Assembly: GCA_963662795.1 (NCBI GenBank)
Contig: OY759746.1
Location: 3,648,001-3,712,000 of the forward strand
DNA length: 64,000 bases
Reading direction: 5' to 3'
Origin: Spirochaetia bacterium
GTDB taxonomy: Bacteria > Spirochaetota > Spirochaetia > CADAEX01
Positions 3 to 63,889 of this stretch are shown here, piece by piece; position 1 is the first letter of the stretch, and each line of letters begins with the position of its first letter. The position numbers were made by a program, and so were the translations under genes. Below the pieces are notes generated by a model that did not search any database, was not told the origin of the DNA, and saw nothing but the letters and a program-made list of their open reading frames with translations.

Positions 3-863
3 AATCAGTCCGATTTTACAGAACTCAGTGTTGTAATCCCCTCTTTTAACGGCGGTTCTGTAATTGAAAAAACATGTATAGAAACCATTGCGGTTCTTGA
101 TGGATTAACTGATAAATGGGAAATTCTCATAACAGACGACGGCAGTACAGACAACACCTGGGAAAAGATTAAATTACTTAACAATATGGATAAAAGGATA
201 AAGGGCATACACCTTTCCAAAAACAGCGGCCAGCAGGAAGCAACCTATTACGGGCTGTTATATTCAGCAGGCGGAAAAGTAATTACAATGGATGATGATT
301 TGCAGCATGATCCCAAATATATACCTCAAATGCTTGACTTTGGGGACGGAGGATATAGCTCAGACAGCAAAATCCTGAGGAACGGAGGATTTTTTATAGT
401 ATTTGCCTCATCCCGCAATATATATTCCATAACAAGATCATTGGGATCATTGGCACACGATCTTTTTTTCTTTCTTTTTTTCAACAAACCATTCGGCGTT
501 AAAATAACCGGCTTCAGGCTTCTATCCTGTGACCTTGTACAGAAAATAATCACATCAAAAAGAGATTTTATCTATATATCAGCAATAGCGTTAAGATTGA
601 AACCCCGTATTTACACATTGGAAACTGACGCTGCCATAATTACCAACAGCAGATACAGTCTTTTTAAGCTTATACGACTTTTTTTTCTTCTTGTTGTGCA
701 TTACACCCTCCCGGATTCACTTTATTTCAGCATAATGAAAACAATCAGGAATTTCCCAATAACAGATAAGAAGAGAAGCCCTGGATTTGTATCCCATAAA
801 ACAGATAAATCATCAGTATCAGAGACAATTCCTGGAAATTTATCAACTAGAGTAAAGGACTGA
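3..863 (+). CDS. Glycosyltransferase family 2 (DPM/ArnC-like), 5'-truncated by the window edge
   Basis: The frame is open from position 3: SVVIPSFN, ITDDGSTDNTW, NSGQQEA, TMDDDLQHDP are GT2 polyprenol-phosphate transferase motifs. The ORF-track start at 186 is internal. Confidence 0.85.
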   Translation, partial: NQSDFTELSVVIPSFNGGSVIEKTCIETIAVLDGLTDKWEILITDDGSTDNTWEKIKLLNNMDKRIKGIHLSKNSGQQEATYYGLLYSAGGKVITMDDDLQHDPKYIPQMLDFGDGGYSSDSKILRNGGFFIVFASSRNIYSITRSLGSLAHDLFFFLFFNKPFGVKITGFRLLSCDLVQKIITSKRDFIYISAIALRLKPRIYTLETDAAIITNSRYSLFKLIRLFFLLVVHYTLPDSLYFSIMKTIRNFPITDKKRSPGFVSHKTDKSSVSETIPGNLSTRVKD

Positions 864-868
864 TTAAA

Positions 869-2158
869 ATGGATAAAAAATCCATATTGATACTCGGAGG
901 CGGCAGCAGCCAGATAAATCTTATTAAAAAATCAAAAAGCATGGGCCTTTTTACAATCCTGGCAGATATTAATCCGGATGCGCCGGGAAGGGAATTCTGC
1001 AGCAAGTTCGAAAAAGTCAGCACTTTTGACTATATCGGAGCGCTAAAGGCTGCAGAGAGGAATTCTATTGATGCTGTTGCTACGGCGGGAACTGATCAGC
1101 CGGTATATACTAGCGCATATATAGCAGATAAACTTTCACTTCCCCAGTTTTTAACGCCTGAAAAAGCACTTACGGTGACGAACAAAAAACATATGAAATC
1201 TGTTTTTAAATCAGCTAAAATAAAAACAGCTGCTTATATACTTTTAGATAAAAATTCAAAAGAAACTGATATTCAGGTTCTCAAGCCGCCCTTTGTCCTT
1301 AAACCGCTTGATAGTCAGGGGCAGCGGGGGGTCATGAAATTAAACACCAGTAAGGATGTCCTTTCCAATATTGAGTATGCACTATCTTTTTCAAGAGAAA
1401 CCTCTGTTATTCTTGAAGAATATTACGATTCAGATGAGATAACATTAAGCGGCTGGGTAAAAGATGGCAAGCTGTATATATTGAGTGTGACAGACAGGGT
1501 GACTTTTGATAATTTACCTTCCATAGGGATTTGCTTATCACATCAATATCCCTCAACCTATTCCTCATCCCATAAAGATGGGATTATCGGTCTGACAGAA
1601 AATATAATAAAAGCTTTCAAAATTGAAAACGGCCCAATATATTTTCAATATCTGATTGGAAATGACGGTATATATGTTAACGAAATAGCATGCAGACTTG
1701 GGGGGGCCTACGAAGATGAATTTATACCCCATACGTCCGGAATAGATATTACAGAAATATTAATTAAAGGCTCTTTAGGAGAAACTATTCCGGATAAAAT
1801 ATTTTCCAGGATAAAACCATCTTCATTATTCTTTAACGGACAATATTTCTCAACCCTGCTACTTTTTTCAAAACCCGGTCTGATTAAACAGCTGTCATTC
1901 CCTGATAACGAAGAACAGGATGACAATATTCTTTCTTCAAAATTCATAATTAACAGCAACACAAAAATCAATCCGGTAGTAAATTCGACACAAAGAGCTG
2001 GATATGCAATACTGAAAAATTGTAATATAAATACCATTAACAGTTCTATCAAATATTTTATTGAAAATACGAAAATATCAGATGAAAAGGGATGCAATCT
2101 ATTAGTCAGTGATTTTGATTTACTGAGTTATAAAACAAGGAGACGGTTTAGTGTTTAA
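869..2158 (+). CDS. ATP-grasp domain protein (carboxylate-amine ligase)
   Basis: ILGGGSSQ N-terminus, VLKPLDSQGQRGV, ILEEY, NEIACRLGG. Confidence 0.85.
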   Translation: MDKKSILILGGGSSQINLIKKSKSMGLFTILADINPDAPGREFCSKFEKVSTFDYIGALKAAERNSIDAVATAGTDQPVYTSAYIADKLSLPQFLTPEKALTVTNKKHMKSVFKSAKIKTAAYILLDKNSKETDIQVLKPPFVLKPLDSQGQRGVMKLNTSKDVLSNIEYALSFSRETSVILEEYYDSDEITLSGWVKDGKLYILSVTDRVTFDNLPSIGICLSHQYPSTYSSSHKDGIIGLTENIIKAFKIENGPIYFQYLIGNDGIYVNEIACRLGGAYEDEFIPHTSGIDITEILIKGSLGETIPDKIFSRIKPSSLFFNGQYFSTLLLFSKPGLIKQLSFPDNEEQDDNILSSKFIINSNTKINPVVNSTQRAGYAILKNCNINTINSSIKYFIENTKISDEKGCNLLVSDFDLLSYKTRRRFSV

Positions 2159-3880: not shown

Positions 3881-4632
3881 ATGATTATCTTGAAATTAAA
3901 AATCTTTCTTTTTCATATACTGATGATAATCAGGGAAGAAAAAATACCAGGAAGGTCATCGACAATATTTCCTTCAATCTTCAGAAAAAAACTCTCCTTT
4001 GTATTCTTGGTCCCTCAGGATGCGGCAAAACTACACTCCTGAAAATTATCGCTTCAATGGTTCCTCCATCTGCCGGGAAAGTACTTTTTGACGGAAAAGA
4101 ACTTAAAAACCCTGATGCCGGCCGTATTTTAATATTTCAGGACGATAATCAGCTTTTCCCATGGCTTAATGTTATTGAGAATATTTTAATGCCATTGAAA
4201 TTATTCCGTATAAACAACAGAGATAATATAGCTATGGATATAATAAATAAGGTAGATCTTACAGGATTTGAAAATTATTACCCGCACAGGCTTTCGGGAG
4301 GAATGAAAAAAAGAGCGGGAATCGCAAGAGCGCTTGCAACATCACCGGAGCTCCTGCTGATGGATGAACCATTCGGGAGTCTGGATGCCCAGACAAGGAA
4401 AAAACTGCATAAACTTGTGCTTGAGATTAAAGAAAAAACTGATTTGACTGTCATATTTGTAACACATGATATCCATGAAGCTATTTTTCTTGCTACTGAT
4501 ATTGCGGTTATAGGCAAATCAGGTACGATCGCTTATCAGATAAAAAACAATTTTTCAGGAATTTCAGATTTTTCTGTTACCGGATTTTCAGACTTTTACA
4601 ATAAACTTTATTCCTTTATTGATGAGCCGTAA
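3877..4632 (+). CDS. ABC transporter ATP-binding protein, NitT/TauT family
   Basis: Walker A GPSGCGKTT, LSGGM signature, LLMDEPFGSLD, VTHD. Start placed at the ATG overlapping the permease stop (ATGA). Confidence 0.92.
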   Translation: MNDYLEIKNLSFSYTDDNQGRKNTRKVIDNISFNLQKKTLLCILGPSGCGKTTLLKIIASMVPPSAGKVLFDGKELKNPDAGRILIFQDDNQLFPWLNVIENILMPLKLFRINNRDNIAMDIINKVDLTGFENYYPHRLSGGMKKRAGIARALATSPELLLMDEPFGSLDAQTRKKLHKLVLEIKEKTDLTVIFVTHDIHEAIFLATDIAVIGKSGTIAYQIKNNFSGISDFSVTGFSDFYNKLYSFIDEP

Positions 4633-4658
4633 TTCCTTCCGGTTATTCCTGATACTGT

Positions 4659-6317
4659 TTAATCTGGTTGAACTTTATAGATTTTTACCAGGTATTCTTT
4701 TTTTTTCATATAATCAACAATTCTGACCGGATATATTTTTTTTCTTAAAGTTTTGACAAGAGTACATTTATTATTAAGAAAAGAGAGGGCTTCATCATAA
4801 TAACTGTAAACATTCCCATAAAGATCATTCCAGACAGGCCTTTCCTGCGCTATAATATCCAGTTCCTCTGTCCAGATGATATATTCAATTTTATTTAGTT
4901 CAATGTAATCGCTGAATTTTATTTTTTTTTCTATTACCTGATCAAGATCGTTATATGAACAAAGTCTACCGTAATCAAGGTTAAAAGCCAGATTTGTATT
5001 TGCAAGAATTTTTCCGCTATCACCTGTTAACTCCGTTATTTCCCTGGAATACTCATTATAGCTGATATCTTTCCAGCTATTTACCTCTGAGTAAGCCTTT
5101 GCAATCTGGTATAACAATAATACGGAAAAAGATATAAACAGAATAAATGCAGCAAAAACATTATTATTTATTCTTTTTCTTGATTTTTTACTTCTTAAAA
5201 CCACATCCATTCCTGTTTGCATATCAACATAATCTTCCTCCGTCCCTGTTTTCATATTATAAAGAATGTCTGCCTCCGTCCCCAATAAAATCCATAATAC
5301 AGGAAAGAGAAAAAAGATTGATGGAGGACTGTATTTACCTATAACAACTATTCCTGCAGCAATGCCGGCAGAAAACAATACTAAAGGGAAAATACGTTTT
5401 CTTGATTTTTCAACTAAAAAGACCAGCAATAAAGCAATTATAAGAGCTGCTGCAAATATATAAAATTGTCCTCTGATATCAGGGAGATAATAAGTTCCCT
5501 GAATCTGATAATATATCTTGTATAAAAATCTGGGAAAGGCAAGCAATTTAATAAACAAAGAATCCCCTACACCGTGTCTTGAACCAAAATTATAATAGTG
5601 ATTTAAAAAATCTCCATCCATAATTAAGCTTGCAAAAAGGGCAATTACCCCGAAGATTATTGTGATAAAAACATATAATCCAAGAATTTTGATTACAATG
5701 GAGATTTTATTTTTTTTATATAAAACTGTAGCGGCAAGAAAAGGGATTATTCCTGTAAAAATAATAAAACTGTTAGGGTGTATAAAAATCGAAAAACCGG
5801 ATAAAAACGATGCCATTAAAATCAGTCTTCTGAAATTATCCTTATCAATACCTGCAATAATAACAAGCTGTATAACTGCAAACAGATAAATAATTATTTC
5901 CTGTCTGGCAAAACGGGATATGTAAATATACTGGATATCAGTAATTATCAGCAGTAAAGTAAATATTCTGATAAAATTGGAACTGATATATTTTTTTATT
6001 AATAAATTTAGAAAATACAGCACAAAGACTGATGCAATAATTGAAATCAATCTTGCTGAATTAATAGAAAAATCCATCATTAGAAAAGGTAGCTGAATAA
6101 TATGAAATAGCAGTTTTACAGCATGCGGGAATCTTTCTGTTATTCTGAAAAACTCTTCAGTGGCAGCAGGATTTTTTTCAGTTATAATAGACCGCGTAAG
6201 GGAAGCCAGCCAGGCTTCATCTGAATGTACAAAAGGATATGAATCGAGATAAAAGAGATTAAGTAAAAAATAAAGTGCCAGTAAAAAAAATATCAGTTTA
6301 CTTTTTGCCACATTCAT
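4659..6317 (-). CDS. GT-C fold membrane glycosyltransferase (ArnT/PMT-like)
   Basis: N-terminal TM followed by PFVHSDEAW (DE motif), ARLIS, SRFARQE, many TM segments and a soluble C-terminal domain. Confidence 0.7.
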   Translation of the reverse strand: MNVAKSKLIFFLLALYFLLNLFYLDSYPFVHSDEAWLASLTRSIITEKNPAATEEFFRITERFPHAVKLLFHIIQLPFLMMDFSINSARLISIIASVFVLYFLNLLIKKYISSNFIRIFTLLLIITDIQYIYISRFARQEIIIYLFAVIQLVIIAGIDKDNFRRLILMASFLSGFSIFIHPNSFIIFTGIIPFLAATVLYKKNKISIVIKILGLYVFITIIFGVIALFASLIMDGDFLNHYYNFGSRHGVGDSLFIKLLAFPRFLYKIYYQIQGTYYLPDIRGQFYIFAAALIIALLLVFLVEKSRKRIFPLVLFSAGIAAGIVVIGKYSPPSIFFLFPVLWILLGTEADILYNMKTGTEEDYVDMQTGMDVVLRSKKSRKRINNNVFAAFILFISFSVLLLYQIAKAYSEVNSWKDISYNEYSREITELTGDSGKILANTNLAFNLDYGRLCSYNDLDQVIEKKIKFSDYIELNKIEYIIWTEELDIIAQERPVWNDLYGNVYSYYDEALSFLNNKCTLVKTLRKKIYPVRIVDYMKKKEYLVKIYKVQPD

Positions 6318-6357
6318 AATTTAAGATATTTTATCAGCAGTTGAGAAAAGTTTACAT

Positions 6358-6395
6358 AAAAAAAGCTGCCGTTCTGAATATTCATATACGGCAGC
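6358..6395 (-). terminator. Intrinsic terminator of the sulfur-relay operon
   Basis: GCTGCCGT (6365-6372) and ACGGCAGC (6388-6395) form a stem, with an A-run at 6358-6364 that is the U-tract on the minus strand. Confidence 0.75.
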
Positions 6396-6434
6396 CCTTT
6401 CTGATTTCAATAGCAGAAAGCTATTATCATCTTA

Positions 6435-7382
6435 TTACTGGGCAACGACAGGATATCCCTGGTTTGTCCATCCCATCGGAGCATTCTTGGGAACACCCAT
6501 TCCGCCTTTCAGCGAAACTGCGTCATAACCGAGGAGCCTTAAAGCTGCTACAGTCTGTCCCGCAGTCTGACCTGAATAACAGTAGATAATAATTTTTTTA
6601 TCTGAAGGCAGGGACTGAAAAGAAGAATCCATACCAGATGCAAACGGGATATTAATCGCACCGTCTATGTGCCCTTTCGCATAATCTTCAGCTCTTCTGA
6701 TTGAAACAAAAACAGCAGATTTATCTTTTGCATCAAAAATGGCTTTAGCATTGGCTTCGCTGATAATATTGCTGGCAAATGGGGTGTCCTTGATCGATGC
6801 GAATCTCTCAAAATATTCAGTAACTTTTTTTGCTATAACAGGATTTACATCATATTTTTTTGTCATATTAAGCTCAGCTGTCTCAGTTGTTGTAATTGCC
6901 TCATAGCCGGGAACTTTTGAAATTCCGAAATTCCAGCCGAAAGCCACAGATTTAACAGGAATACCAGCTGCATTCATCAGCATACCTGCCTGTGCAGCTG
7001 TCTGACCTGAATAGCAGTAGATGTATACATTCCCTTCATGAGGAAGATAGGCAAGTTTTTCAGCAACAGGCATACCCCAGGGAACACTAACTGCACCTTT
7101 TACATGGCCTTTCGCGTAATCTGCCGCTGATCTTGCGTCTATTACAAACATCTGTTCGCCAGCTTTTACTTTTTCAACAAAGTCAGCTTCCTTGATCTGA
7201 TAGTTTGTATGTGCAGCCAGATCTGCATAATAATTTTTTACCGCTTCTGCCGCATAATTTACTTTCATTTCTGCAGCAGGGGATGCGGCAGGTGCTTCTT
7301 TAGCGCCTGTAGCCCAAACAGTAGATGCTGTAGTACTTAGCAGCATTATAAGCGCGATCTTTAAAAATAAAAATTTTTTCAT
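6435..7382 (-). CDS. Exported tandem rhodanese-domain protein
   Basis: Signal peptide ending VWA followed by TGAKE; two domains, each with DYAKGH(V/I)xGA and an active-site loop YCYSGQTA. Confidence 0.85.
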   Translation of the reverse strand: MKKFLFLKIALIMLLSTTASTVWATGAKEAPAASPAAEMKVNYAAEAVKNYYADLAAHTNYQIKEADFVEKVKAGEQMFVIDARSAADYAKGHVKGAVSVPWGMPVAEKLAYLPHEGNVYIYCYSGQTAAQAGMLMNAAGIPVKSVAFGWNFGISKVPGYEAITTTETAELNMTKKYDVNPVIAKKVTEYFERFASIKDTPFASNIISEANAKAIFDAKDKSAVFVSIRRAEDYAKGHIDGAINIPFASGMDSSFQSLPSDKKIIIYCYSGQTAGQTVAALRLLGYDAVSLKGGMGVPKNAPMGWTNQGYPVVAQ

Positions 7383-7411
7383 TTAAATACCTCTTTGTTA
7401 TTTTTCTTTAT

Positions 7412-8323
7412 TTATGAATTATCTGATGAATTAATCATATAAACCGGTTTTTCCGGTTTAAACACAGGATTCATGGGATTGGCAATCCACTCAACCCATG
7501 CTCCGTCATATAATTTCAGGTTTCTATAACCAGCATTATAAAGAGCAAGATATGTCTGAGCACCTCTTATAGAAGTTTTACAGTACATATAAATCTCCTT
7601 ATCATAATCAATCTTCTCCTGAAGATATCTTATCCTTATCTGCTGCACCGGTTTATAAGTACCGTCACTGAAATTATTATCCTTATAGTTTAAAAGAACT
7701 GAACCAGGTATAGTGCCTTCCTCTTCATATTCTTTCTGTGACCTTGTATCAATAATTACTGCATCTGAGCGTGGATTATCAACGAGCTCCCTTAAATCGT
7801 CACGTACTGCTATCATATTCTTTCTTTCTTCTGAAATACTGTATGTCTTAGTTTCTCTTGAGACAGCCTGATCTGATACTTTTGCACCTTCAGACAGCAG
7901 GGCGTTAAGACCGCCGCTGACAACCTTTACAGTATCATTTCCATAATACTTTAATGTCCACCATAATCTGGCAGAATCCATATTGTCGTTATTATCATAG
8001 ACAACAATCAGCATGGAATTATCAATGCCCTTCCTGCCCATCAGTTCTTCGATCTGAACGGCAGGAGCCAGCATATTAATATATGGTGTATTAACTACGA
8101 TGTCTGCTCTTGAGATGTTTACCGCACCCTCAATATGTCCATTACTGTAGTCAGGGAAATTCCTGGCATCAATAAGAACTGTTTTACCATCGCTTATCAG
8201 ACTAATAGCTTCTTTAGCAGTGATTATTTCTGTATTTATTTCACCAGGTGCTTTCTGTCCGCAGGAGAATAGCAGCACAGTGAACAGTAAAACTGAAAAA
8301 AATATTCCGTATTTTAGTTTCAC
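7412..8323 (-). CDS. Sulfurtransferase (TST/SseA-like tandem rhodanese) lipoprotein
   Basis: Lipobox LLFSC, GHIEGAV, SARLWWTL, active site YCKTSIRG, C-terminal LYDGAWVEW. Confidence 0.88.
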   Translation of the reverse strand: MKLKYGIFFSVLLFTVLLFSCGQKAPGEINTEIITAKEAISLISDGKTVLIDARNFPDYSNGHIEGAVNISRADIVVNTPYINMLAPAVQIEELMGRKGIDNSMLIVVYDNNDNMDSARLWWTLKYYGNDTVKVVSGGLNALLSEGAKVSDQAVSRETKTYSISEERKNMIAVRDDLRELVDNPRSDAVIIDTRSQKEYEEEGTIPGSVLLNYKDNNFSDGTYKPVQQIRIRYLQEKIDYDKEIYMYCKTSIRGAQTYLALYNAGYRNLKLYDGAWVEWIANPMNPVFKPEKPVYMINSSDNS

Positions 8324-8332
8324 AATACCTCC

Positions 8333-9568: not shown

Positions 9569-9589
9569 TACTTTTCCTTGAGTTTTTAA

Positions 9590-10135
9590 TTACATAAAAT
9601 ATTTAACAAGCAATTTGCTGCCGATCATGGCTCCTATAAAAAGGAAAAATCCAAATACCCAGCCGGAAAGAGACAAAGATGATATACCACTGTAAAACGC
9701 TCCAATATTGCATCCCTGTGCAATTCTTGCCCCGTAACCCATAAATAAACCACCAAGTATGGCAGCAAGAACCTGCCTTGAGGATTTTAATTTTTTAAAT
9801 TTGAAACCGGAGGCTATCAGTGTCGCGAAAAGAGCCCCGGTAATAATGCCTACATTTCTCATTGACGCAAAATCATTGAGAAAACCCCGTTCCAAAGTAT
9901 TTCTAGCACCTTCACTGGCAAAATAATACCATTTATCTACCGAACCGCCTGCAAATTCATATATCCAGGCTCCCCAGTTGGCAAATGCAGCAGATACACC
10001 CCAAGGGTTACCTGTTACAGCAAAAGTCACAATCTGGAAAACTGACAGTAATATGGCTCCGGTTAGATACGGCCATGCATCTTTTAACCACAGTATGTAG
10101 TAATCATTGGTTTTAATTTTATCAGTCAGCTTCAT
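9590..10135 (-). CDS. YeeE/YedE (TsuA) sulfur transporter, C-terminal half
   Basis: PWGVS, GGLFMGYGARIAQGCNIGA, SLSGW. Confidence 0.88.
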   Translation of the reverse strand: MKLTDKIKTNDYYILWLKDAWPYLTGAILLSVFQIVTFAVTGNPWGVSAAFANWGAWIYEFAGGSVDKWYYFASEGARNTLERGFLNDFASMRNVGIITGALFATLIASGFKFKKLKSSRQVLAAILGGLFMGYGARIAQGCNIGAFYSGISSLSLSGWVFGFFLFIGAMIGSKLLVKYFM

Positions 10136-10150
10136 TGATCCCTCCAGGGG

Positions 10151-10378: not shown

Positions 10379-10395
10379 TTTAATACTCCTTAATT

Positions 10396-11130: not shown

Positions 11131-11291
11131 TTTGTGGATCTCCTTTTATAAAAGATTTATATCAATTGCGTTATATGTTTGTATATAAATATATAAATGT
11201 AACAATGTTATATAAATAGAATACATGAAAATACATATATTGGTCAATATTCATTAAACTAGATTAGTCTAATTTAATGAATTAATAATTA

Positions 11292-11320: not shown

Positions 11321-11329
11321 TTTTAAATT

Positions 11330-12574
11330 ATGGAATTATTATCCCCTGCAGGCAGTATAGAGAAACTATTTTATGCATATGAATATGGAGCTGATGCAGC
11401 TTATATAGGACTTAAAAACTTTTCACTCAGAGCAAAAGCTGATAATTTCAGAAAAGACGAATACCTTGAAATTAAGAATATAAAAAAGAATAAAAAACTA
11501 TACGCGGCACTTAATATCTATTTTCATGATAACGACATAAAACACCTTGAAAGTGAAATTGAATATATATCAAATTATCCTATAGATGCCTTTATAATTA
11601 GTGATATTGGTCTTCTTCCTGTTATGAAAAAATATTTTCCCAATACTGAACTACATTTAAGCACACAAGCAAATTGTGTTAACACAAATTCAGCAAAACT
11701 TTACAGGGATATGGGATTTTCAAGGATAATTCCCGGGCGAGAATTATCTCTGAGGGAAATTGAAGCCATAAAAAGAGATGTTGATAATCTTGAAATTGAA
11801 GTTTTCGTTCACGGGGCGATGTGTCTGGCCTATTCCGGCAGATGCTTTTTAAGCAAATATCTTGCCGCCCGCTCTGCAAATAAAGGCGATTGCGCCCATT
11901 CCTGCCGATGGAAATACAGGGTTCTTGAAGAATCCGAACGGCAAGGAGAATATTTCCCATTGATTGAAGGTGAAAATTTCACATCTATCCTCTCTTCTAA
12001 AGACATTTGTATGATAGATCATATAAAAGATCTTCAAAATGCAGGTATTGATTCCCTAAAAATTGAGGGAAGGATGAAATCTATCTATTATACAGCAGTA
12101 GTTACCCGGGCCTACAGAAAAATGATTGATTATATATCAGCTGGCAATAATGATTTTGAGGGACGGAGGAATAATTTTATCGATAAAAATATAGATCAAT
12201 ATGTCAATGAAATTTATAAAGTCAGCCACAGAGAATTTTCAACAGGTTTTTACTATACAAAAGAAGATATTGAAGAATCTACTTATAAATCTTATATGAA
12301 AAAGTATAATTTTCTTGGTAGTATTATTGAATTAGTAAATAACACATCTTCCCCCAATAAATATTGTTATCTGCTTGATGTAAAAAACCAAATTTCTGTA
12401 AATAAAGAAATAGAATATATAGGACCAGATCTTCTTTATAAGATTGACACTAATTACAGTCTTTACGATGAAAATTTCAACAAAGTCGAAAAAACAGATC
12501 ATGGGAAAATTTCATATCTCGTAACTGATGAAAAATTAGAAACAGGATTTATAATTCGCGAAAAATATCATTGA
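11330..12574 (+). CDS. Peptidase U32 family protein (TrhP/YegQ-like RNA hydroxylase)
   Basis: ELLSPAG, HLSTQAN, HGAMCLAYSGRC, GDCAHSCR Fe-S cysteines, SLKIEGRMKS. Confidence 0.9.
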   Translation: MELLSPAGSIEKLFYAYEYGADAAYIGLKNFSLRAKADNFRKDEYLEIKNIKKNKKLYAALNIYFHDNDIKHLESEIEYISNYPIDAFIISDIGLLPVMKKYFPNTELHLSTQANCVNTNSAKLYRDMGFSRIIPGRELSLREIEAIKRDVDNLEIEVFVHGAMCLAYSGRCFLSKYLAARSANKGDCAHSCRWKYRVLEESERQGEYFPLIEGENFTSILSSKDICMIDHIKDLQNAGIDSLKIEGRMKSIYYTAVVTRAYRKMIDYISAGNNDFEGRRNNFIDKNIDQYVNEIYKVSHREFSTGFYYTKEDIEESTYKSYMKKYNFLGSIIELVNNTSSPNKYCYLLDVKNQISVNKEIEYIGPDLLYKIDTNYSLYDENFNKVEKTDHGKISYLVTDEKLETGFIIREKYH

Positions 12575-13064
12575 AAAAATATTTTAATAGCTTCTTTTCT
12601 AAATTATTAGGTGGATCAATAAATCTATATTTTTTATAGTTTATTCCACAGTATAAATAATTACGGACGTTTTTAACAATTTTTGCAGCAACAGGGTTAT
12701 TAGCAATATATTTATATGCGTAAATGAACTCTTTTAAGTTTTCAATAATAGTACTTTTAAATCTATCATACCAAACATGTCCAATATATCCATATTTTTT
12801 ATTATATCTAATTGCAAAAACACTCAATATCCACTGCATAATTTTTGACAAATTTACATTTTCTCCAGGTTTGATCAATAAATGGATATGATTATCCATA
12901 ATACAAAAGTTTTTTATTTGGAATGAATACTTTTTTTTAGCTTTTTTCAGTACTATAATAAACATCTCTTTTATTTCCGTGGTATTAAAAATAAATTCTT
13001 TCCTGTTAGCTCTCGCAACTACATGATAAAAAACATCTTCCTTTATTTTTCTTGGGATTCTCAT
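12549..13064 (-). mobile_element. REP-associated tyrosine transposase-like protein (Y1 HUH, IS200/RAYT family)
   Basis: YHVVARANRKEFIF, HUH motif MDNHIHLL, GHVWYDRFKS, catalytic Tyr in YIANNPV. Very AT-rich; no tnpB partner. Confidence 0.85.
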
Positions 13065-13099: not shown

Positions 13100-13138
13100 A
13101 AAACATGGATTAAAAGTTATACTATTAATCCATGTTTT
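13100..13138. repeat. Perfect 14-bp inverted repeat (hairpin) upstream of the RAYT gene
   Basis: AAAACATGGATTAA (13100-13113) and TTAATCCATGTTTT (13125-13138), with three more inner pairs AGT/ACT. Confidence 0.9.
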
Positions 13139-13219
13139 TGGCACAGGGAGCATGTAGATCTGATTATTTGAAACCTCCGTCCCTTTACTCAACTCAGCTA
13201 GGTAATAAAATATTTAAAT

Positions 13220-15088
13220 CTATTCCGGTTTATAAAGACTTTCCGGAACTACTCTAACCGCTCCTTTATCAGCAGATGTTACAAAGTATGAGTAGGCTTT
13301 AAGAGAATCAGAAATAATTCTATCACGGACAGGTGTATATGCATCTTTTCCTCTATTTTTTTCATCTTTTTTTCTTTTTTCTAACTCACTAACGTTGATA
13401 TCAAGATTTATTGACCTTGCAGGTATATCAATTTCTATAATGTCGTTATCTTTTATGAGAGCAATTGTCCCTCCCGATGCTGCTTCAGGAGAAATATGGC
13501 CAATCGAAAGGCCTGAAGTACCTCCAGAGAATCTTCCGTCAGTAATTAAAGCACATTCCTTGCCAAGATGTATGGATTTTATGTAAGAAGTTGGATATAG
13601 CATTTCCTGCATTCCTGGTCCACCCTTTGGGCCTTCATAAATAATTACAACAATATCACCTGCTGTTATTTTCCCACCCAGGATCGCATCACAAGCAAGC
13701 TCTTGTGAATGAAACACTCTAGCTTTACCTCTGAATTTAAAAAGAGAACTGTCTACACCTGCTGTTTTTATTATTGATCCCTTCTCGGCAATATTGCCAT
13801 AAAGGACAGCAAGTCCTCCGTCCCTATAATAACAGTTCTCAACACCTCTAATACACCCATTTTTATTATCAGTATCAAGCTCTTTAAATGTTGAGTCCTG
13901 TGAACCTAAAATAAGATTAAATACACCTCCAGGTGCCGACTTGGCATTTTCAAATGCTTCAGGCATAGCCTTAACACCTGATATATCATAAGCATCAAGT
14001 GTTTCGCCTAGGCTAGATGAATCAACTCTTTTTACAGTTTTATCAATGAGACCAGCTCGTGCAAGTTCAGAAAGTATCCTTATAATACCTCCTGCCCTGT
14101 TTACATCTTCAACATGATAGCTTGAACTTGGAGCTACTTTGCATATACACGGGACCTTTCTGGATAATTCATCAATGTCCTTCATAGTAAAATCAGCTTT
14201 TGCTTCCTGCGCTATTGCAAGAAGGTGAAGTACTGTATTTGTTGAACCTCCCATGGCAATATCAAGAGTCATGGAGTTCAGGAATGCATTTCGTGTTCCG
14301 ATTGAGCGGGGGAGAACAGAATCATCCCCAAGTCTGTAATAGCGGTCAGCATTTTTAACAATCTGCAGGGCAGCCTTTCTGAATAGCTCTTTTCTCCTTT
14401 TATGTGTAGCAACAATAGTACCGTTACCGGGAAGCGCAAGACCAAGCGCTTCATTAAGGCAATTCATTGAATTAGCAGTAAACATACCGGAACAGCTTCC
14501 GCATGTTGGGCAGGCGTTCCTCTCAAGTTCATCAACATCGCCGTCAGAAATATTTTTATCAGCACTCTGTACCATTGCATCGATAAGATCTATTTTTTTA
14601 CCTTTATAATTTCCTGCCTCCATCGGTCCCCCTGATACAAAAATCGCAGGGATATTAAGTCTCATAGCAGCCATGAGCATTCCGGGAGTTATTTTATCGC
14701 AATTACTAATACAGACAAGAGCGTCAACTCTATGCGCATTGCACATATATTCAACACTATCTGCAATTAAATCCCTTGATGGCAAGGAATAAAGCATCCC
14801 GTCATGTCCCATTGCTATACCGTCATCAATTGCAATTGTGTTAAATTCTGCTGCAAAACAACCCTGTTCTTCGATAATTGATTTTACATATTGTCCAATT
14901 TCATGTAGATGAACATGTCCCGGAACCATCTGAGTAAAAGAGTTGGCTATCCCAATAATAGGTTTACCCATCTGATTTTTTTTCATTCCATTTGCAATCC
15001 AGAGACTTCTCGCCCCTGCCATCTTCCTATCTTCCATAGTCAGACTGCTTCTCAATTTATTTTTCATTTGAACTATTTTTTCCATCAC
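13220..15088 (-). CDS. ilvD: Dihydroxy-acid dehydratase
   Basis: [57 protein letters not shown]. Confidence 0.97.
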
Positions 15089-15110
15089 TCTACTCCTTTT
15101 TCTATTAGAA

Positions 15111-16394
15111 TCATATTTCTTTTACTGCTTTAAAAATTAGTTTCAAAAGTTCAGGAATTTTTTCAATATCTACAGACGAAAATGCAATTCGCAGATATTT
15201 TCCCGAAATTGAAATTGTACCTGTGGAATATTCTTCAAGAAGATGTTTTCGAAGCTTCTCAGCGTCTTTTCCAAGCAATTCGAATGTCATGAAATATCCT
15301 GAATTAAAAGGAAGAATCTTAAGAGGTACATCTGCAGGTATATTTTGAACAATTTCTTTTACTTTTAAATATCGTTCTTTCATCCGTGCTCCGGCAAATT
15401 CCTTTTCCTGATGATAAGTACCGCTTGAAAGTCCTTTTAATAAAAGGTTTTGCGTGATATTACAACAGCTTGAAACAGATGATCTTATAGCACCCATTGT
15501 TTTTTGCTGAAGGGCTTCATACTGCTCTTTGGTTATCCCCTTTCCTCCGTAGGTTATAAAACCTGTTCTGAATCCCCAGACTAGTTCTTCCTTTGTAGCA
15601 CCGTCTATTTTTACTGCCAGTATATTTTTATGAAGATTACAAAGTTTTCCGAAAAGAGATTCTGTAGATGTGTTTTCTTCAAAAAAAAGTCCAAAATACG
15701 CATCATCGCAAATCACAAGTATTTTGTGCCCATTTTCTGCAAGTCTGTTAAACATTGATATAATTTCATCAGACTCTTCTACAGAAGGTGAATAACCTGT
15801 AGGATTATTTGGAAAATTAAGAATAACGGCTGTTTTTTTATTTCCAGTTGATTTAATAGTATTTTCAAGGCCTTTTATATTTATTTTATCATCATCAAAA
15901 AACGGATAGTTGACAACGTTTCCCTGCCTCCGTCCCTCTATAATAAGCTTATAATTACCCCAATACATATCAGGCACTACTACACTGTCGTCTTTTTCTA
16001 CAAAAAGATCGGCGGCTATAGAGATTCCATGGGTAAGACCTGACGTTACAATTGGCAGAGAAATAAGAGAATCTCCGATTGAAGGATTTTTTTTAAGCAT
16101 CTCATCTTTCCAGATTTCCCTGAGTTTCAATATTCCTGCTGTAGGTGCATAGCTGAATATCTCAGAGGGTTCAAGCCCGCTGATATGTTTCATTATCGAT
16201 GGTAGAAACATAGGTTTATTATCGCTTGTCGCCATACCTACTGTTGCATTATATTTTTTAGCCTTGGCACCGGCCTCTGCAGCCTGTGAAACAATTCCTT
16301 TGGGAAAAAACATTCTTTTTCCAAGGTCCGAAAGAAGTGTATAAATAGTTGAATTATCAAGTACTGCATTAAGTTCTTTAACGATTGGTTCCAT
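15111..16394 (-). CDS. PLP-dependent class I/II aminotransferase
   Basis: [19 protein letters not shown]-lysine motif [16 protein letters not shown]. Start at MEPIVK, which has an AAGGAG RBS. Confidence 0.9.
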
Positions 16395-21715: not shown

Positions 21716-23884
21716 ATGACTGCATTTAAAATTAAAACAGAATTTCAGTTTTTTAATAATATTTTTTCTTTCTTTTTTATTTTTCTCACTTTTATAACTG
21801 GATGTGAAGCTGTAGAAGTAATTAAAAAAGATAATCCTGCAGAGAGAAGTATTGATTTGATGACTGCGGTTTCAGCATATTATGACGGCAATTTTAATGA
21901 ATCTATCTCTTTGTTTGAAAGAATAATTCTGGAAAATCCGGCAAATCCCGATGCTGTGCTGAGTCTGGCAAGGCTTTATGAGGAGTCCGGCCGCCATTTA
22001 GAGACAGCAGAATTATTAAAATCAGAAAGCTTCTTGACTGAAACAAACAAAAAAAAAGAATCTTATTCAAAAAACAATAGCAGGACATTTTCAATGTGGG
22101 AAGACAGCGCCCTGCCGTTCTTTTTATCAGGAAATAATGAAGAGTATGTTCGGAAGACTGAATCTTTAATTCAGAATATGACTTTAAAATCCAATGATGA
22201 TATACAGCAAAAACAATCACAGATGGATGAATTATCAGAAATGTTTTTTTTTACCGGATGGGCATATGAAAATACCGGCGCAAAAGATAAAGCAATAGAT
22301 TCATTTGAATCTTCCATCAGGATAAGGGAATACTTTCCTTTAGCGCATCTTGCCCTTGGATTACTGTATTTTAAAAATAATGATTTTGAATTGTCTGAAA
22401 AACATCTTCGTACAGCTCTCAAACAGGATTCCAATATCACGCAGGCACGGCCATATCTTGCAAAAACTTTTCTTGCTCAAAACAGATTGAATGAAGGATA
22501 TGCAGAACTTCAAAAATCAATGGCAATCAGACCGTGGGACAGGGAAACAAAAGAGATACTTACAGTTTTTGAAAAAAATAATCCTGCAATTATTAAAGAG
22601 AAAGAAGAATTTACTGCTAAAAAAAGAATTTCATCCTCCGTCCCCAAAGCAATTTCCATTACAGACGATAGAGACACGATGCCTCAGATAAGAGTGGGAC
22701 TTGCAGAAAATTCAAGTGAATTATTTATCAAAACAGGAGGGGATTTCATTATAACTTCCCAGTCTGGGGAACATCTTCTTAAGGGTAATAATAATCAGAT
22801 TTACAGAATTGTATTTGATCATAATAATATTGTAATATCCTCAACAAATGATGAAACGGTTCTATCTATTTCAAAGCCGATCTCGCTTGTTTATGATAGT
22901 CCATTCTCAACAACTCTGATCTTTGATATTTTACACAGCAGCGGATATCAGTCGGCAGGACAGGAAGACAGAGACTATAGAGGAAAAATATCCTTTATCC
23001 CTTTTCAGAATAATGGAATTACAATAGTTAACACGCTGCCTCTTGAGGAATACCTTTATTCTGTCGTTCCATCAGAAATGCCATCTTCCTGGCCTGAAGA
23101 GGCGCTTGCCGCTCAGGCTGTCGCTGCCCGCTCTTATACGCTTGCAAATATGGGAAAATATGAAAAACGGGGATTTGACCTTTCCGGTTCCATTCATTCC
23201 GCATTCTACCGCGGGCTGTCCGGTGAAAACACTAAAACTACTGCTGCTGTAGAAAAAACCCGCGGACTTTTTCTAAAATATGAAAACAGTTATCTTAATG
23301 CATTCTATTCCGCCAATTCTGCAGGAAGAACAGAATCTGCAGAAAGTGTCTGGAAGATGAATGCTCCGATAATTGGAGTAACCGATCCTCAGCTTGTATT
23401 TAAAACCAATCCTCCGTCCCCATGTGAGCTTACCAGGTGGATATTATCAGAACCTCCGTCATACAGCTCTGTTCCACCTTTTTACTACAAATCTTCATAC
23501 CGATGGAGAATTATTGTTCCCAGAGAGGAAATAGAAGCAAGAATAGGAAATGATATCGGTACTGTATTAAGAATTACAACCCGTGGACGGGGAATGAGCG
23601 GAAGGGTAAATGAGGTTCTTGTTGAAGGAAGTAAGGGGAATGAAATAATCCGCAATGATTCGATAAGAAACCGTCTCGGCGGATTACGCAGCAACCTTTT
23701 TATTGTCATGCCTAAAATGGGAGAAGACATGATTCCGCAATTCTTTATTTTTGCAGGAGCCGGATGGGGTCACGGAGTTGGCATGTGCCAGACTGGTGCG
23801 GCAGGAATGGCATCTGAAGGATTTTCAGCAGAAGAGATTCTTAAACATTATTATCCGCTTGCTGATTTAATAAAAGAATATTGA
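21716..23884 (+). CDS. TPR plus SpoIID/LytB lytic transglycosylase lipoprotein
   Basis: Lipobox FITGC, TPR-like helices, LEEYLYSVVPSEM, ALAAQAVAARSY, GWGHGVGMCQTGA. Confidence 0.88.
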   Translation: MTAFKIKTEFQFFNNIFSFFFIFLTFITGCEAVEVIKKDNPAERSIDLMTAVSAYYDGNFNESISLFERIILENPANPDAVLSLARLYEESGRHLETAELLKSESFLTETNKKKESYSKNNSRTFSMWEDSALPFFLSGNNEEYVRKTESLIQNMTLKSNDDIQQKQSQMDELSEMFFFTGWAYENTGAKDKAIDSFESSIRIREYFPLAHLALGLLYFKNNDFELSEKHLRTALKQDSNITQARPYLAKTFLAQNRLNEGYAELQKSMAIRPWDRETKEILTVFEKNNPAIIKEKEEFTAKKRISSSVPKAISITDDRDTMPQIRVGLAENSSELFIKTGGDFIITSQSGEHLLKGNNNQIYRIVFDHNNIVISSTNDETVLSISKPISLVYDSPFSTTLIFDILHSSGYQSAGQEDRDYRGKISFIPFQNNGITIVNTLPLEEYLYSVVPSEMPSSWPEEALAAQAVAARSYTLANMGKYEKRGFDLSGSIHSAFYRGLSGENTKTTAAVEKTRGLFLKYENSYLNAFYSANSAGRTESAESVWKMNAPIIGVTDPQLVFKTNPPSPCELTRWILSEPPSYSSVPPFYYKSSYRWRIIVPREEIEARIGNDIGTVLRITTRGRGMSGRVNEVLVEGSKGNEIIRNDSIRNRLGGLRSNLFIVMPKMGEDMIPQFFIFAGAGWGHGVGMCQTGAAGMASEGFSAEEILKHYYPLADLIKEY

Positions 23885-57708: not shown

Positions 57709-58794
57709 TCAACTTTCTCCGCCGGTATTAATCATTTCAAGATTATCGATAAATCTTTTTATCCCATTATAAATACCTTCGGTTATTTTCTTCAAGTAAT
57801 TTTTATCCGAAAGATTTACAGATTCTTCTTTATTTGATACAAATCCCACTTCAATCAGAACAGAAGGCATTTTGGCATTTTTTACAACAAACCAGGTTTC
57901 TTCCTTTAAGCCTCGGTTTAAATCCTTACTGCCAATTGATTTATCAAGACCATCGAGGATATTTTGCGCCAATAAAATACTCTCTATTGTAAATTCTTCT
58001 TCAAGCATTGTATTCAGGATGGGAAGGATATCTTTTGTTTTTTTGTCAGCTTTGTTCTCATCAATCAAATCCCGCCTGTAATCAGGCGGCAGATACCAAA
58101 CCTCAAACCCTTTTGCGTTTTTATTGAAAGAAGCATTTGCATGTATTGAAACAAATACAATTGCCTCGTTTTTTCCAAGTTTGACATTATTTGCTTTTTC
58201 TACCCTGTCATCAAGTGAGGGATATGAATCGTTGTTTCTCGTCAGAATTATTTTTTTATCCCTGTAGGCAGAGGTTAGCCTCCTGTTTAGTTCAAGTGCA
58301 ATATCAAGTACGACATCTTTTTCATAAACAGTATAATTATTTCCATCAATATCATGTCTGCCTATTGCTCCGGAATCCCTTCCCCCATGCCCGGGATCAA
58401 TAATTATTGCAGCAATCCTGTGCCCCGAAGGTTTAACATCAGTCGGTTCCTTCTCAGCTGGTCTTGAGAAAGCAGTAAAACCGCTCTTTGAGAGTATTGC
58501 TTCAGCGGTTTTACCATCAATTATGATAATTCCTCCGTCCCTGTTTATCCTTGAGCCTGTTATTTTTTCCTTATAGTTATATACAACAAAATCTTCTCCC
58601 GGTTTGAAACTGAAAATATCTTCCCCGTACTTAAGTTCTCCGGTATCAAGTATTGGGGACCATCTGAATGAAAAATTATTTTGTTTAATAAAATCCGTCA
58701 GAGAAATATCATCAGATGCTGCATTGGCATTAAAACAGAGGATAAACAGAAGAATAACAATTAAAACTGCTGATTTCCGCCCTGTTATTACCAT
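57709..58794 (-). CDS. N-acetylmuramoyl-L-alanine amidase (Amidase_3)
   Basis: IIDPGHGGRD, EKDVVL, FVSIHANAS, PSVLIEVGFVSN. Confidence 0.93.
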   Translation of the reverse strand: MVITGRKSAVLIVILLFILCFNANAASDDISLTDFIKQNNFSFRWSPILDTGELKYGEDIFSFKPGEDFVVYNYKEKITGSRINRDGGIIIIDGKTAEAILSKSGFTAFSRPAEKEPTDVKPSGHRIAAIIIDPGHGGRDSGAIGRHDIDGNNYTVYEKDVVLDIALELNRRLTSAYRDKKIILTRNNDSYPSLDDRVEKANNVKLGKNEAIVFVSIHANASFNKNAKGFEVWYLPPDYRRDLIDENKADKKTKDILPILNTMLEEEFTIESILLAQNILDGLDKSIGSKDLNRGLKEETWFVVKNAKMPSVLIEVGFVSNKEESVNLSDKNYLKKITEGIYNGIKRFIDNLEMINTGGES

Positions 58795-62229: not shown

Positions 62230-62945
62230 GATTTTCTATTACTGTCGGGATGGGGATTCTTTTTAAGCCAGTCAATAAGCCGTTCAGTACTTTCTGTCAA
62301 ACAATCAGTTCCGGTTATATTATCAATTTCAAAGATTCTCTTTATATAAAGATAATCATTCATGGTATCCATGGTTATCCTGCCGTCCGGATATATTGAT
62401 CTGATATCAGCTTCAGGATGATTCAGCTTATACAATGACGGTCTGCGGTAAAGATAAGGAGTAACATGCTCCCTTTCGTACGGATCAGTGGCATTTTTTT
62501 CCGCCTCCAGCAATTTTTCTGATTTTACTATCTCAACCCCGGCGCCCAGAGGCATTCCTGTGAACCAGCTGTGATCCGCATTTTTTTCAATATGCTCTGA
62601 AAGAATAAACTGCGCCTGGCGGTAAAACACCAGTGGATTATCTCCTGTAGCCCTTACAAAGTTAAGAGGAGAGTATTTTTCAACCGCAAGGGCAAATCTT
62701 TTTAAAACATCATCAGCAGGACCCTCCATAATCTCAAATCCGTACTTCTGTGTTTCCTTTTCAAGTATAGCAAAACTGTCGCGGTCGGTGAGAACAACAT
62801 AATTATCTGCCTTTATTCTTTTCAGCCTGATCATGGCCCTGCCGAGCGCCGTTATTCCATTAAGATCAAAAAGAGCTTTGGAAGGGAGCCGCGTTGAACC
62901 GATACGGGCCTGCAGAAAAACAGCTACATTTCCGGATCTGACCAT
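62226..62945 (-). CDS. SpsF/NeuA-like acylneuraminate cytidylyltransferase
   Basis: QARIGSTRLPSK, DDVLKRF, RATGDNP, REHVTPY. Confidence 0.88.
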   Translation of the reverse strand: MVRSGNVAVFLQARIGSTRLPSKALFDLNGITALGRAMIRLKRIKADNYVVLTDRDSFAILEKETQKYGFEIMEGPADDVLKRFALAVEKYSPLNFVRATGDNPLVFYRQAQFILSEHIEKNADHSWFTGMPLGAGVEIVKSEKLLEAEKNATDPYEREHVTPYLYRRPSLYKLNHPEADIRSIYPDGRITMDTMNDYLYIKRIFEIDNITGTDCLTESTERLIDWLKKNPHPDSNRKS

Positions 62946-63889
62946 AGTTCTGTTAACCCTCTGCAGTCAAAATTAAAACGGTATTTATTAAGTTCAACCC
63001 ATTTTTTTGCTTCATTAAAATTATTTTTTGCCGTAAAAAAACTTTCACCCGACCTTAACAGATACTGTATAAATTTTGATCCGGGCAGATAACCTGAATC
63101 ACCGTTAAACCTTACTGCAAGATTTTTCAGGTAAAACATCCTGTAATATCTGTCAACAGAGGAATCATCTGTAATAAAATCTGAAGTATAGGCCGACTGA
63201 AGGCTTGTATTGCAGACAATTCTTCCGCCCCACATGTTTACCCTGAACCCGAAATCCATCTTCTGCCAGTACTGGTTCAGGATTGAGTAATCATACCCGC
63301 CGCTGTAAAGAAATTTCTCCCTGTTGTAAATACCGCAATAATCAAACGGGAACAGGGTGATTGCACCGTTTTTTTTGGGAACAGTATAAATAATCTTGAG
63401 ATTCCGTTTTTTAAATGCCGGTATCACTATTGAAGGGACTATTTCGTTTCCTGAAGTTCTCAACACCGGGACAGTACAGATAGATTCTTCATGCTGCAGG
63501 TTTTCAACTAGCCTTACAGATACTGATGATGGAGAAAGTTTCATATTATTCCATACTGTATATACATATTCGCTTTTTGCCTCTTCAAGCCCGAGATTTA
63601 TCTGCTCTCCGGGGCTGCAGCTTTCCTGAAGCAGGAGGAATTTAACAAAAGGGAATTTTCTTGAAATGCTTTCAACATCATAGTTTACACCGGGATTTTC
63701 TATGGATATTACCTCAGCAAAACCAAGGCTTTCAATTTCCTTTAAAAAATCAGTTTTAAATATGGATTTTCCCCTGTTAAGGACAAGAAGAGAAAGGCGT
63801 TCAAAATGTCTTTTCCCTCCGCTTCCTCCGTCCCCGAGGACTGTATAGGGAATCCGCGCCCTTTTAGAAGTTGTAGGTATAGTATTCAT
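62924..63889 (-). CDS. Conserved hypothetical protein, GT2-like fold
   Basis: GEQINLG, GGYDYSILNQYWQKMDFGFR. Start placed at MNTIPTT, overlapping the end of the upstream gene. Confidence 0.65.
   Translation of the reverse strand: MNTIPTTSKRARIPYTVLGDGGSGGKRHFERLSLLVLNRGKSIFKTDFLKEIESLGFAEVISIENPGVNYDVESISRKFPFVKFLLLQESCSPGEQINLGLEEAKSEYVYTVWNNMKLSPSSVSVRLVENLQHEESICTVPVLRTSGNEIVPSIVIPAFKKRNLKIIYTVPKKNGAITLFPFDYCGIYNREKFLYSGGYDYSILNQYWQKMDFGFRVNMWGGRIVCNTSLQSAYTSDFITDDSSVDRYYRMFYLKNLAVRFNGDSGYLPGSKFIQYLLRSGESFFTAKNNFNEAKKWVELNKYRFNFDCRGLTELWSDPEM

Follow-up and report, generated by a model that had tools for sequence, protein, structure and literature searches.

REP sequences (repetitive extragenic palindromes) are 20 to 40 bp long, bear a GTAG or CGTC tag, and spread as doublets known as REPINs. 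Their partnership with REP-associated tyrosine transposases (RAYTs), the REPtron, was reportedly worked out by Nunvar in 2010, Bertels and Rainey in 2011, and Ton-Hoang in 2012. A related kind of unit was described by Di Nocera et al. (2013; PMC3733652): in the part of that paper considered here, RAYT-like genes flanked by terminal inverted repeats (TIRs) are called TIRYT and their units TIRtrons, the repeats share GGGGWSAS in the majority of cases, though not in all, and they form a "moderately abundant" dispersed family in some genomes or species. According to the portion of Quentin et al. (2018; PMC6006769) considered here, most TIRYTs belong to TnpA_REP subclass 2.1, which has a C-terminal helix-turn-helix (HTH)-like extension. 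Here, we analyzed a stretch of 64,000 nucleotides (the window, G000:C1:3648001-3712000) from a Spirochaetia bacterium whose genome (G000) is a single contig of 3,931,449 bp with 39.7% GC. In this window the 10-nt word CCTCCGTCCC, whose reverse-strand form is GGGACGGAGG, recurs in and around a gene for a RAYT-like Y1 (HUH) tyrosine transposase, hereafter Y1.

The closest known kind of system is the TIRYT/TIRtron, and the gene is a TIRYT-like member. We consider it likely that D-CCTCCGTCCC-Y is the conserved TIR core of a TIRtron-like unit with a single-copy RAYT-like Y1, and that the local cloud of further copies depends on Y1. Wherever the Y1 gene lies, this cloud goes with it, and orthologous regions that lack Y1 do not have it; it consists mostly of the local variant of the word and arose mainly by substitution in situ, and some of the substitutions change amino acids. 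By analogy with related transposases, the word is most likely DNA that the Y1 enzyme recognizes. An earlier note, made from the letters of this stretch, had proposed a DNA-level signal and had listed an uptake sequence, a genome-wide recombination-type site, and an HUH-nuclease target as candidates. The last of these is the best fit, with the word as the inverted terminal word of a RAYT-like Y1/HUH gene, and an HUH-enzyme target is probably what the signal is; the uptake and genome-wide candidates did not survive the comparisons given below.

The window holds 11 exact copies of CCTCCGTCCC, all at the coordinates and on the strands that the earlier note had reported (Table 1). The expectation of about 0.01 that it had estimated was reproduced by 100 dinucleotide-preserving shuffles (mean, 0.01; none of the 100 reached 11), while its figure of about 33% GC was a little low, the 4-kb bins ranging from 0.325 to 0.393. 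The base after the word is C or T in 11/11 copies and the base before it is T in 8/11, as had been described, and the two one-mismatch variants already pointed out, CCTCCGTTCC at 379-388 (minus strand) and CCTCCGTACC at 41497-41506 (plus strand), are the only ones in the window. Ten of the copies are inside open reading frames (ORFs), in all three frames, and are translated as GDGG (2), EGRR (2), RDGG (2), GTEE, GTEA, SSVP, and PPSP, which likewise agrees with the note; the sole intergenic copy is that upstream of Y1. GGGACGGAGG is on the sense strand in 8 of the 10 genic copies, and the 9:2 strand skew, for which replichore polarity had been suggested as a possible source, reflects this gene orientation instead.

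The Y1 protein matches Pfam Y1_Tnp (E = 1.2e-17, residues 10-123) and no further Pfam domain, and scores 35.2 bits with the NCBIfam IS200 model (NF033573) against a cut-off of 55. Its only relative in the PDB is TnpA_REP of Escherichia coli (4ER8, E = 2e-6), with the YI..NPV block aligned. The HxH pair (H59 and H61) and Y119, which lies in the YI..NPV block, are invariant among nine homologues; homologues of the protein end at about 155 aa. The gene is single-copy in G000 (one match even at E <= 10), and its ratio of nonsynonymous to synonymous substitution rates (dN/dS) against the orthologue in the congener G001 is 0.12, the value for the adjacent dihydroxy-acid dehydratase gene (IlvD) being 0.09. 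Judged by the invariant HxH and Tyr residues and the dN/dS of 0.12, the enzyme looks functional and catalytically intact. Y1 is bracketed by inverted words, one 110 nt upstream of the start codon and the other about 390 nt past the stop codon, within the peptidase U32 gene, whose ORF overlaps that of Y1 by 26 nt. No tnpB was seen beside Y1 in the ORF list of the window. The 109-nt leader of Y1 folds with a z score of -4.2, and its hairpin, whose 14-bp stem is perfect, is kept in G001 with one loop change; as a feature of the family the hairpin was not found, the median z score over 62 loci being -0.11, with 4 loci below -2. Between the word and the start codon, 29 of these 62 loci have a TGAAGCA box, which may be a promoter element.

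The same arrangement was seen at the Y1 genes of relatives. A one-genome-per-species scan yielded 146 relatives, from which the best 80 loci (1.18 Mb in total) were kept; nearly all are from Spirochaetia metagenome-assembled genomes (MAGs), including Oceanispirochaeta, Alkalispirochaeta, Sediminispirochaeta, Marispirochaeta, and others, with Y1 homologues of 45 to 62% identity, and the set also includes two loci labelled Margulisiibacteriota, one Parasporobacterium, and one "uncultured bacterium." Enough flank was available at 73 loci, and 63 of them have the upstream word no more than 320 nt before the Y1 start. G005, which belongs to another genus of the same family, has five Y1 paralogues (55 to 62% identical to the window protein by tblastn), and all five have GGGACGGAGG upstream and CCTCCGTCCC downstream; both Y1 paralogues of G008 have copies on each side. 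Apart from these words and a short GCTTCA box that follows the upstream word and precedes the start, the flanks in G005 and G008 are unrelated. In a logo of 526 copies, information is found only at [not C]-CCTCCGTCCC-[C/T], nothing is conserved beyond positions -1 to +11, and no longer element or hairpin around the word appeared. When the word is read as [G/A]GGGACGG, the first base is G in 69% of the copies. Three loci outside Spirochaetota (L054 and L077, from a Margulisiibacteriota MAG, and L063, labelled Parasporobacterium) carry a Y1 of the same lineage together with the same word, which could be due to horizontal transfer or to binning error.

Exact copies total 533 across the 80 loci, whereas permuted control words average 3.6, which makes the enrichment about 150-fold. 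Sites with one mismatch number 224 against 124, and 109 of the 224 are the named alternative variants introduced below; sites with two mismatches number 1175 against 1414. The mismatch spectrum is thus exact-or-nothing, and the cloud is kept exact. That the signal is one of DNA and not of protein, as the earlier note had maintained, holds: six frames are used, and 82% of 362 copies at related loci are in long open frames, compared with 89% of random positions. The copies can hardly be credited to chance, to codon usage, to shared protein motifs, or to an assembly artefact. Such an origin would draw on the DGG of IlvD and the PPSP of the TPR-SpoIID protein, which partly dictate the word, and on GGN, GAC, and GGA being common codons, but permuted control words average 0 copies in the window cloud, where the word has 9, and the six frames and the control counts just given stand against it as well. 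The region is, moreover, reproduced in run X4, an independent assembly that comes from a different study and sample; there, one 64.8-kb contig covers window positions 4501-24500 with 103 differences and 4 gaps; among the differences listed, none is inside the copies at 5237 or 5273. The assembly artefact that the note had named as a possible refutation was therefore not borne out.

In the whole genome, the word has 31 exact copies (23 on the plus and 8 on the minus strand), whereas the reversed control word has 11. Nine of the 31 lie no farther than 12.5 kb from the Y1 gene, where 0.2 would be expected (binomial P = 3e-13); out to 65 kb the count is 13, and out to 150 kb it is 16 (P from 3e-13 to 1e-10), so that the cloud is densest within about 12 kb of Y1 and thins over about 150 kb. 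No second Y1 gene or remnant that might explain the outliers at 46 to 147 kb was found in the genome, even at E <= 10. The same decay is seen in the pooled loci, where the density is 6.0 copies/kb in the 150 nt upstream of Y1, about 0.4 to 0.9 copies/kb at 0.5 to 2 kb, and 0.15 to 0.22 copies/kb at 7 to 10 kb, with six occurrences of the reversed control word over all distance bins. In G005, 20 of 26 copies are within 30 kb of a Y1 gene, a span that makes up 8% of the genome; among the 14 copies beyond the immediate flanks, 8 are within this distance.

The excess is thus regional and the copies essentially confined, the remainder being near the control count. Confinement to this region was the outcome that the earlier note had itself set against a genome-wide signal, and therefore an uptake-type signal is ruled out on its own terms. 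A genome-wide uptake signal, such as a DNA uptake sequence (DUS) or uptake signal sequence (USS), or a polar recombination or segregation signal of the kind of Chi or KOPS (FtsK-orienting polar sequences), had been suggested by a short exact word that occurs in all frames and is over-represented in the coding DNA of the window, and a few relatives do have 146 to 407 copies per genome (G175, G092, G094, and G199). Such a signal is highly improbable here: 31 copies in 3.93 Mb, half of them near one gene, are too few and too local, presence tracks the Y1 gene and not the taxon, variants differ between loci of one genome, and strand polarity is not clear. Of the 31 genome copies, 22 (hand count), mostly within one cluster, have the G-rich word on the leading strand, and 77 of 131 copies at related loci have it on the G-rich strand; these polarity biases are weak and confounded, and the related loci also show a mild sense-strand bias of GGGACGGAGG (183:113).

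GC skew places the origin at about 1.40 Mb and the terminus at about 3.43 Mb, so that the cluster is 220 to 280 kb from the terminus. Sites of the parS type cluster and occur inside genes, and the position of the cluster would suit chromosome-organizer sites at a landmark (parS, matS, or ram-like) with Y1 merely incidental. We regard this as very unlikely, in that the word is non-palindromic, clusters are found at each Y1 paralogue in unrelated contexts (G005, G008, G009, and G003), and the Y1-less orthologous region of G005 is without copies.

Other Y1 lineages go with other words, namely, GGGACGGAGC, GGGTCGGAGC, and GGGGACAGAG[G/C]. The last of these flanks a separate Y1 lineage (G003, G009, and G054). 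The single Y1 gene of G003 goes with 38 copies of GGGGACAGAG[G/C] (controls, 4), and 21 of the 38 are no more than 20 kb from it; in G009, which has five Y1 genes, there are 92 (controls, 1), clustered at every one of these genes; and G006, a congener of G009 in which Y1 was not found, has 6 against 5. Among the 80 loci, those without the canonical upstream word have one-base variants that agree between the two ends: GGGACGGAGC goes with GCTCCGTCCC, and GGGTCGGAG goes with CTCCGACCC. The distal copies tend to agree with the ends: 60 loci with the canonical word upstream have 264 canonical and 29 GAGC-variant distal copies, compared with 33 canonical and 32 variant copies at the 8 loci with GGGACGGAGC upstream (Fisher P = 7e-12). 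Within one MAG, L046 is canonical and L066 and L075 are purely variant, and the paralogue loci of G009 have either ...GAGG or ...GAGC. The word label is clustered on the Y1 tree, a quick IQ-TREE reconstruction that leaves 34 of its 94 inner branches open: the label needs 18 changes, as opposed to 31.5 after shuffling. The last base (G/C) nevertheless switched at least three times.

Presence of the word was compared with presence of Y1 in 201 genomes of the class, the word being counted as in excess at 20 or more copies, provided that these came to three times the control or more. Of the 32 genomes with a close Y1, 19 show such an excess; the figures are 2 of 13 for genomes with a weaker Y1 match only and 4 of 156 for those without a Y1 match. 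At the window locus itself, the U32, IlvD, and aminotransferase genes are adjacent in G005, G011, and G007, and Y1 searches did not find Y1 at the U32/IlvD locus of these three genomes. We infer that Y1 was inserted between U32 and IlvD in the genus of the window, because the genes of the relatives are adjacent without Y1 there. The complete list of copies in G005 has none in the orthologous region. In G003, the Y1 unit takes up a stretch that measures about 60 bp in G006.

How the copies arose can be read in part from orthologues. The copy in the aminotransferase gene, EGRR, corresponds to GAG GGA AGA TGC (EGRC) in the orthologues of genus g4 and differs from it by one synonymous Arg change and a Cys-to-Arg replacement. 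In IlvD, DGG is kept in 9 of 10 aligned orthologues (EGG in one), and the Arg codon AGG before it is found only in G000 and G001, the other orthologues having P, K, T, or E at this position. The copy at residue 314 of the SpoIID protein (22635) differs by several substitutions from eight orthologues, with no indel. The PPSP copy at residue 573 (23411) is also present at the orthologous site of G005, far from any Y1 and with no indel; because it is shared away from Y1, it is regarded as an ancestral or chance copy that protein constraint favours. The U32 copy differs from all of these, since its insertion is present only in G000 and G001 (10 codons in G001) and is absent, or represented by 2 to 3 aligned codons, in 14 other orthologues.

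Copies are both kept and turned over within the genus. Ten of the 11 window copies are identical in G001, compared with 43.5% of all aligned 10-mers (the region is 91% identical; P = 0.0016). The site at 379 is either a decayed or a not yet completed copy, because the orthologous site of G001 is exact. In the tandem repeat of ORF 4659-6317, the exact copies are in units 1 and 3 in G001 and in units 2 and 3 in G000, and therefore turnover has occurred within the genus.

One alternative is that the copies are footprints or miniature insertions, resembling MITEs (miniature transposable elements with inverted repeats) or REPINs, that were spread by local hopping of Y1. In line with this, the U32 copy sits in a lineage-specific 33-nt in-frame insertion, pairs spaced by 36 nt occur in the window and arrays with an 18- to 19-nt period in relatives, and REPs within genes have been reported in the part of PMC3733652 considered here. 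We nevertheless think it unlikely. Three of the five window copies compared by codon are substitutions without change of length, and a fourth is the one shared with G005, without indel. In G003, 6 of 21 copy sites could be aligned to Y1-less congeners (genomes about 70% identical), and the 10-mer was an insertion in 0 of 6. Furthermore, an element body is lacking, because nothing is conserved past one flanking base in the 526 copies. Contigs from four sequencing runs (Logan), in which rare excision junctions would be invisible, gave joints that, among those listed, have short sides and 85% likeness and look foreign.

The preferred reading, a Y1-dependent cloud around a TIRtron-like unit, can be put as a mechanism. 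The Y1 protein would bind or cleave the word, as TnpA_REP does with REPs and by analogy with the ends of IS200/IS605 elements, and would act mainly in cis, near its own gene. A local process that depends on Y1 would then make and renew exact copies, the favoured route being biased conversion or repair of near-cognate words, or insertion followed by excision that leaves the end word behind. A process driven by Y1 is favoured because the pattern is all-or-none, follows the local end variant within one genome, and relocates with the gene. In its strongest form, Y1 in cis rewrites near-matching words, or hops in and out, and maintains a self-renewing cloud that forces amino-acid changes on housekeeping proteins; we put this forward tentatively, as a possibility. 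If true, rewriting in cis would amount, in bacteria, to a local sequence drive of a new kind, or to concerted evolution of a 10- to 12-nt word.

It is also possible, though we would not call it probable, that the copies are selected binding sites of a co-opted Y1 that serves in local DNA organization, regulation, or protection, the sites being favoured where the concentration of the protein is highest. The copies arise by point substitution at already similar sites and are kept between G000 and G001, and Y1, like a host gene, has one copy and is subject to purifying selection, all of which such a role would explain. Single-copy RAYT groups without REPINs have been described as co-opted, in the parts of PMC5581495 and bioRxiv 10.1101/2021.07.10.451892 considered here. 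On the other hand, the clouds relocate with the gene, with five separate ones in G005, and are hard to tie to one host function. The local variant flips between G and C at least three times on the Y1 tree, with the distal copies mostly following. Sites with one mismatch are not enriched beyond the named variants, and any selection must therefore be all-or-none; no benefit is known.

Several points weigh against Y1 as the source of the cloud. The computed evidence does not tell mutational drive from selection, and selection is a serious rival. The tie between the enzyme and the word is one of association, and for some copies no special process has to be invoked: the PPSP copy of SpoIID also occurs in G005, away from any Y1 gene, and conservation of DGG largely fixes the copy in IlvD. 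In G000, 15 copies are more than 150 kb away, to be set against 11 copies of the reversed control word genome-wide. The Y1 protein scores 76.4 bits with the NCBIfam model REP_Tyr_transpos (NF047646), below the cut-off of 80, and the downstream inverted word is present within 900 nt in only 39 of 72 loci. Covariation of the ends with the cloud is not absolute, L089 having a variant upstream word and yet 16 canonical distal copies. Six of the 32 genomes with a close Y1 (G021, G027, G063, G114, G131, and G166) show no genome-wide excess; conversely, G067, G076, and G172 have an excess although Y1 was not found in them, and G092 has one with only Y1 fragments at contig ends. The comparison genomes are mostly MAGs, in which binning errors are possible, and the P values across genomes overstate the case because related genomes are not independent.

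TIRYT and RAYT-like enzymes are widespread, and no role is known for them; in the library searched, TIRYT, TIRtron, or GGGGWSAS came up in only three entries, two of which are the same work. The locus provides a precise candidate recognition word of 11 to 12 nt, with natural word variants paired with enzyme variants and with natural controls in sister genomes and orthologous regions that lack Y1. The word accumulates inside ordinary genes around Y1 and alters their proteins. If this accumulation is driven by the enzyme, it would be a new mutational force on bacterial coding DNA; if it is selected, it would point to an unknown local function of a domesticated transposase. The cloud was not expected and lends itself to direct testing. 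Y1/HUH enzymes that have short, defined targets also serve as tags for covalent coupling of DNA and protein. In genome scans, dense local clustering of one GC-rich word, in exact copies, would be a cue to look for a central Y1 gene when the genome is AT-rich.

Table 1. Copies of the word and associated features in the window (coordinates are those of the window)
Feature	Position	Strand	Remark
Cloud copy in glycosyltransferase family 2 gene, GDGG	343..352	-	Kept in G001
One-mismatch copy CCTCCGTTCC, 36 nt from the copy at 343	379..388	-	Orthologous site in G001 exact
Pair of copies spaced by 36 nt, within the 12-residue tandem repeat (GTEA.../GTEE...) in an uncharacterized 552-aa ORF, 4659-6317 (-)	5237..5282	+	
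Downstream inverted partner of the Y1 unit, in peptidase U32 gene, EGRR	12160..12169	-	
11-codon (33-nt) in-frame insertion in U32, FEGRRNNFIDK, holding the copy at 12160	12155..12187	+	
Gene for RAYT-like Y1 (HUH) tyrosine transposase, 171 aa, center of the cluster	12549..13064	-	
Hairpin with 14-bp stem between upstream word and Y1 start	13100..13139	.	
Upstream terminal word, 110 nt ahead of the Y1 start codon (GGGACGGAGG in the sense direction of Y1)	13174..13183	+	
Cloud copy in dihydroxy-acid dehydratase IlvD, RDGG	13815..13824	+	
Cloud copy in class I/II aminotransferase, EGRR	15927..15936	+	
Cloud copy in TPR-SpoIID protein, SSVP, C-rich word on the sense strand	22635..22644	+	
Copy in TPR-SpoIID protein, PPSP	23411..23420	+	
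Outlying copy in N-acetylmuramoyl-L-alanine amidase gene, RDGG, 46 kb from Y1	58532..58541	+	Kept in G001
Outlying copy in uncharacterized 336-aa ORF, GDGG, 51 kb from Y1	63825..63834	+	Kept in G001

Both pairs in the window (343/379 and 5237/5273) are spaced by exactly 36 nt, and word arrays with a period of 18 to 19 nt were seen in the relatives G002:C58, L064, and G054:C25, the last for the GGGGACAGAG word. A 23-kb segment of the window (27963-51108) has no counterpart on the otherwise collinear contig of G001; it codes for FapA and an HD-domain regulator, along with periplasmic binding proteins and several hybrid histidine kinases and response regulators. This segment accounts for the greater part of the stretch without exact copies (23421-58531), has only the one-mismatch site at 41497 in it, and may be a strain-specific insertion that is too recent to have acquired copies, or may simply be too distant from Y1. 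Rfam gave no match in the window at the gathering score. The same 10-mer is found in one publication on the TIRs of a mariner-like element from bamboo and in another on a Stowaway MITE from rice, which we take as coincidence, the transposase class and the kingdom being different; the literature matches listed for it come from plant MITE or mariner, microRNA, and primer contexts, with no bacterial one among them.

Elsewhere in the genome (G000:C1:1,867,254-2,180,026), we noticed a repeat of about 60 nt that occurs 32 times on the same strand. It has a 7-bp stem, and the near-variant CCTCCGGCCC lies in its 13-nt loop. These repeats lie between codirectional ORFs, about 80 to 120 nt before the next one, and the nearby ORFs encode an OLD-like TOPRIM/AAA ATPase, proteins with weak matches to Shedu SduA_C and UDG, and two 357-aa zinc-ribbon proteins with near-identical domain scores. 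The region looks like an integron-like cassette array with attC-like hairpins and defence-type genes, no integrase search having been made; Rfam gave no match at E <= 0.01 on the repeat-bearing piece L203 (G000:C1:2016000-2030000).

Compared with known systems, the unit is like the TIRYT/TIRtron in that a RAYT-like Y1/HUH gene lies between terminal inverted repeats and not between REP hairpins, and the sister-lineage word GGGGACAG fits GGGGWSAS. It is unlike the TIRYT/TIRtron in that the window word (RGGGACGG...) departs from GGGGWSAS at position 7, with G instead of A, and unlike subclass 2.1 in that Y1 has 171 aa and only Pfam Y1_Tnp, without the C-terminal HTH-like extension. In the parts of the literature on TIRYT and RAYT considered here, whose figures and supplements may list cases, we found no TIRYT from Spirochaetes, no intragenic copies made by substitution, no distance decay, and no local variant matching; an intragenic, distance-decaying, exact-or-nothing cloud thus appears to be undescribed.

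The REPtron shares with this unit a single-copy, vertically kept Y1 flanked by inverted short repeats, repeats that are also dispersed, and a repeat type that varies by lineage. In contrast to it, the word is 10 to 12 nt long and non-palindromic, has no conserved flank or hairpin, is mostly intragenic, and is concentrated around the gene, and Y1 falls below the curated cut-off for REP-associated tyrosine transposases (76.4 versus 80). With IS200/IS605 elements (IS608 and ISDra2), Y1 shares the catalytic fold and motifs (Pfam Y1_Tnp), and single-strand chemistry would be expected. IS608 inserts next to a fixed target, and the downstream word of G003, which sits in ancestral host DNA, is reminiscent of this. 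Unlike those elements, Y1 does not form identical multicopy elements, being single-copy in G000 with paralogues elsewhere only 55 to 62% identical to the window protein, general subterminal hairpins are lacking, and the IS200 model score (35.2 bits) is below its cut-off (55).

Very-short-patch repair by Vsr distorts CCWGG-related words in E. coli. By analogy, the word would resemble those shaped by Vsr, Chi, and DUS in being exact, short, present in all frames, and without enrichment of near-variants, the pattern of conversion bias or of very strict recognition. DUS and USS have hundreds to thousands of copies genome-wide, in contrast to the 31 copies here, 16 of them within 150 kb of one gene. 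Whereas Vsr, Chi, and DUS act on the whole genome, the effect described here is confined to the surroundings of the nuclease gene and is specific for the variant found locally.

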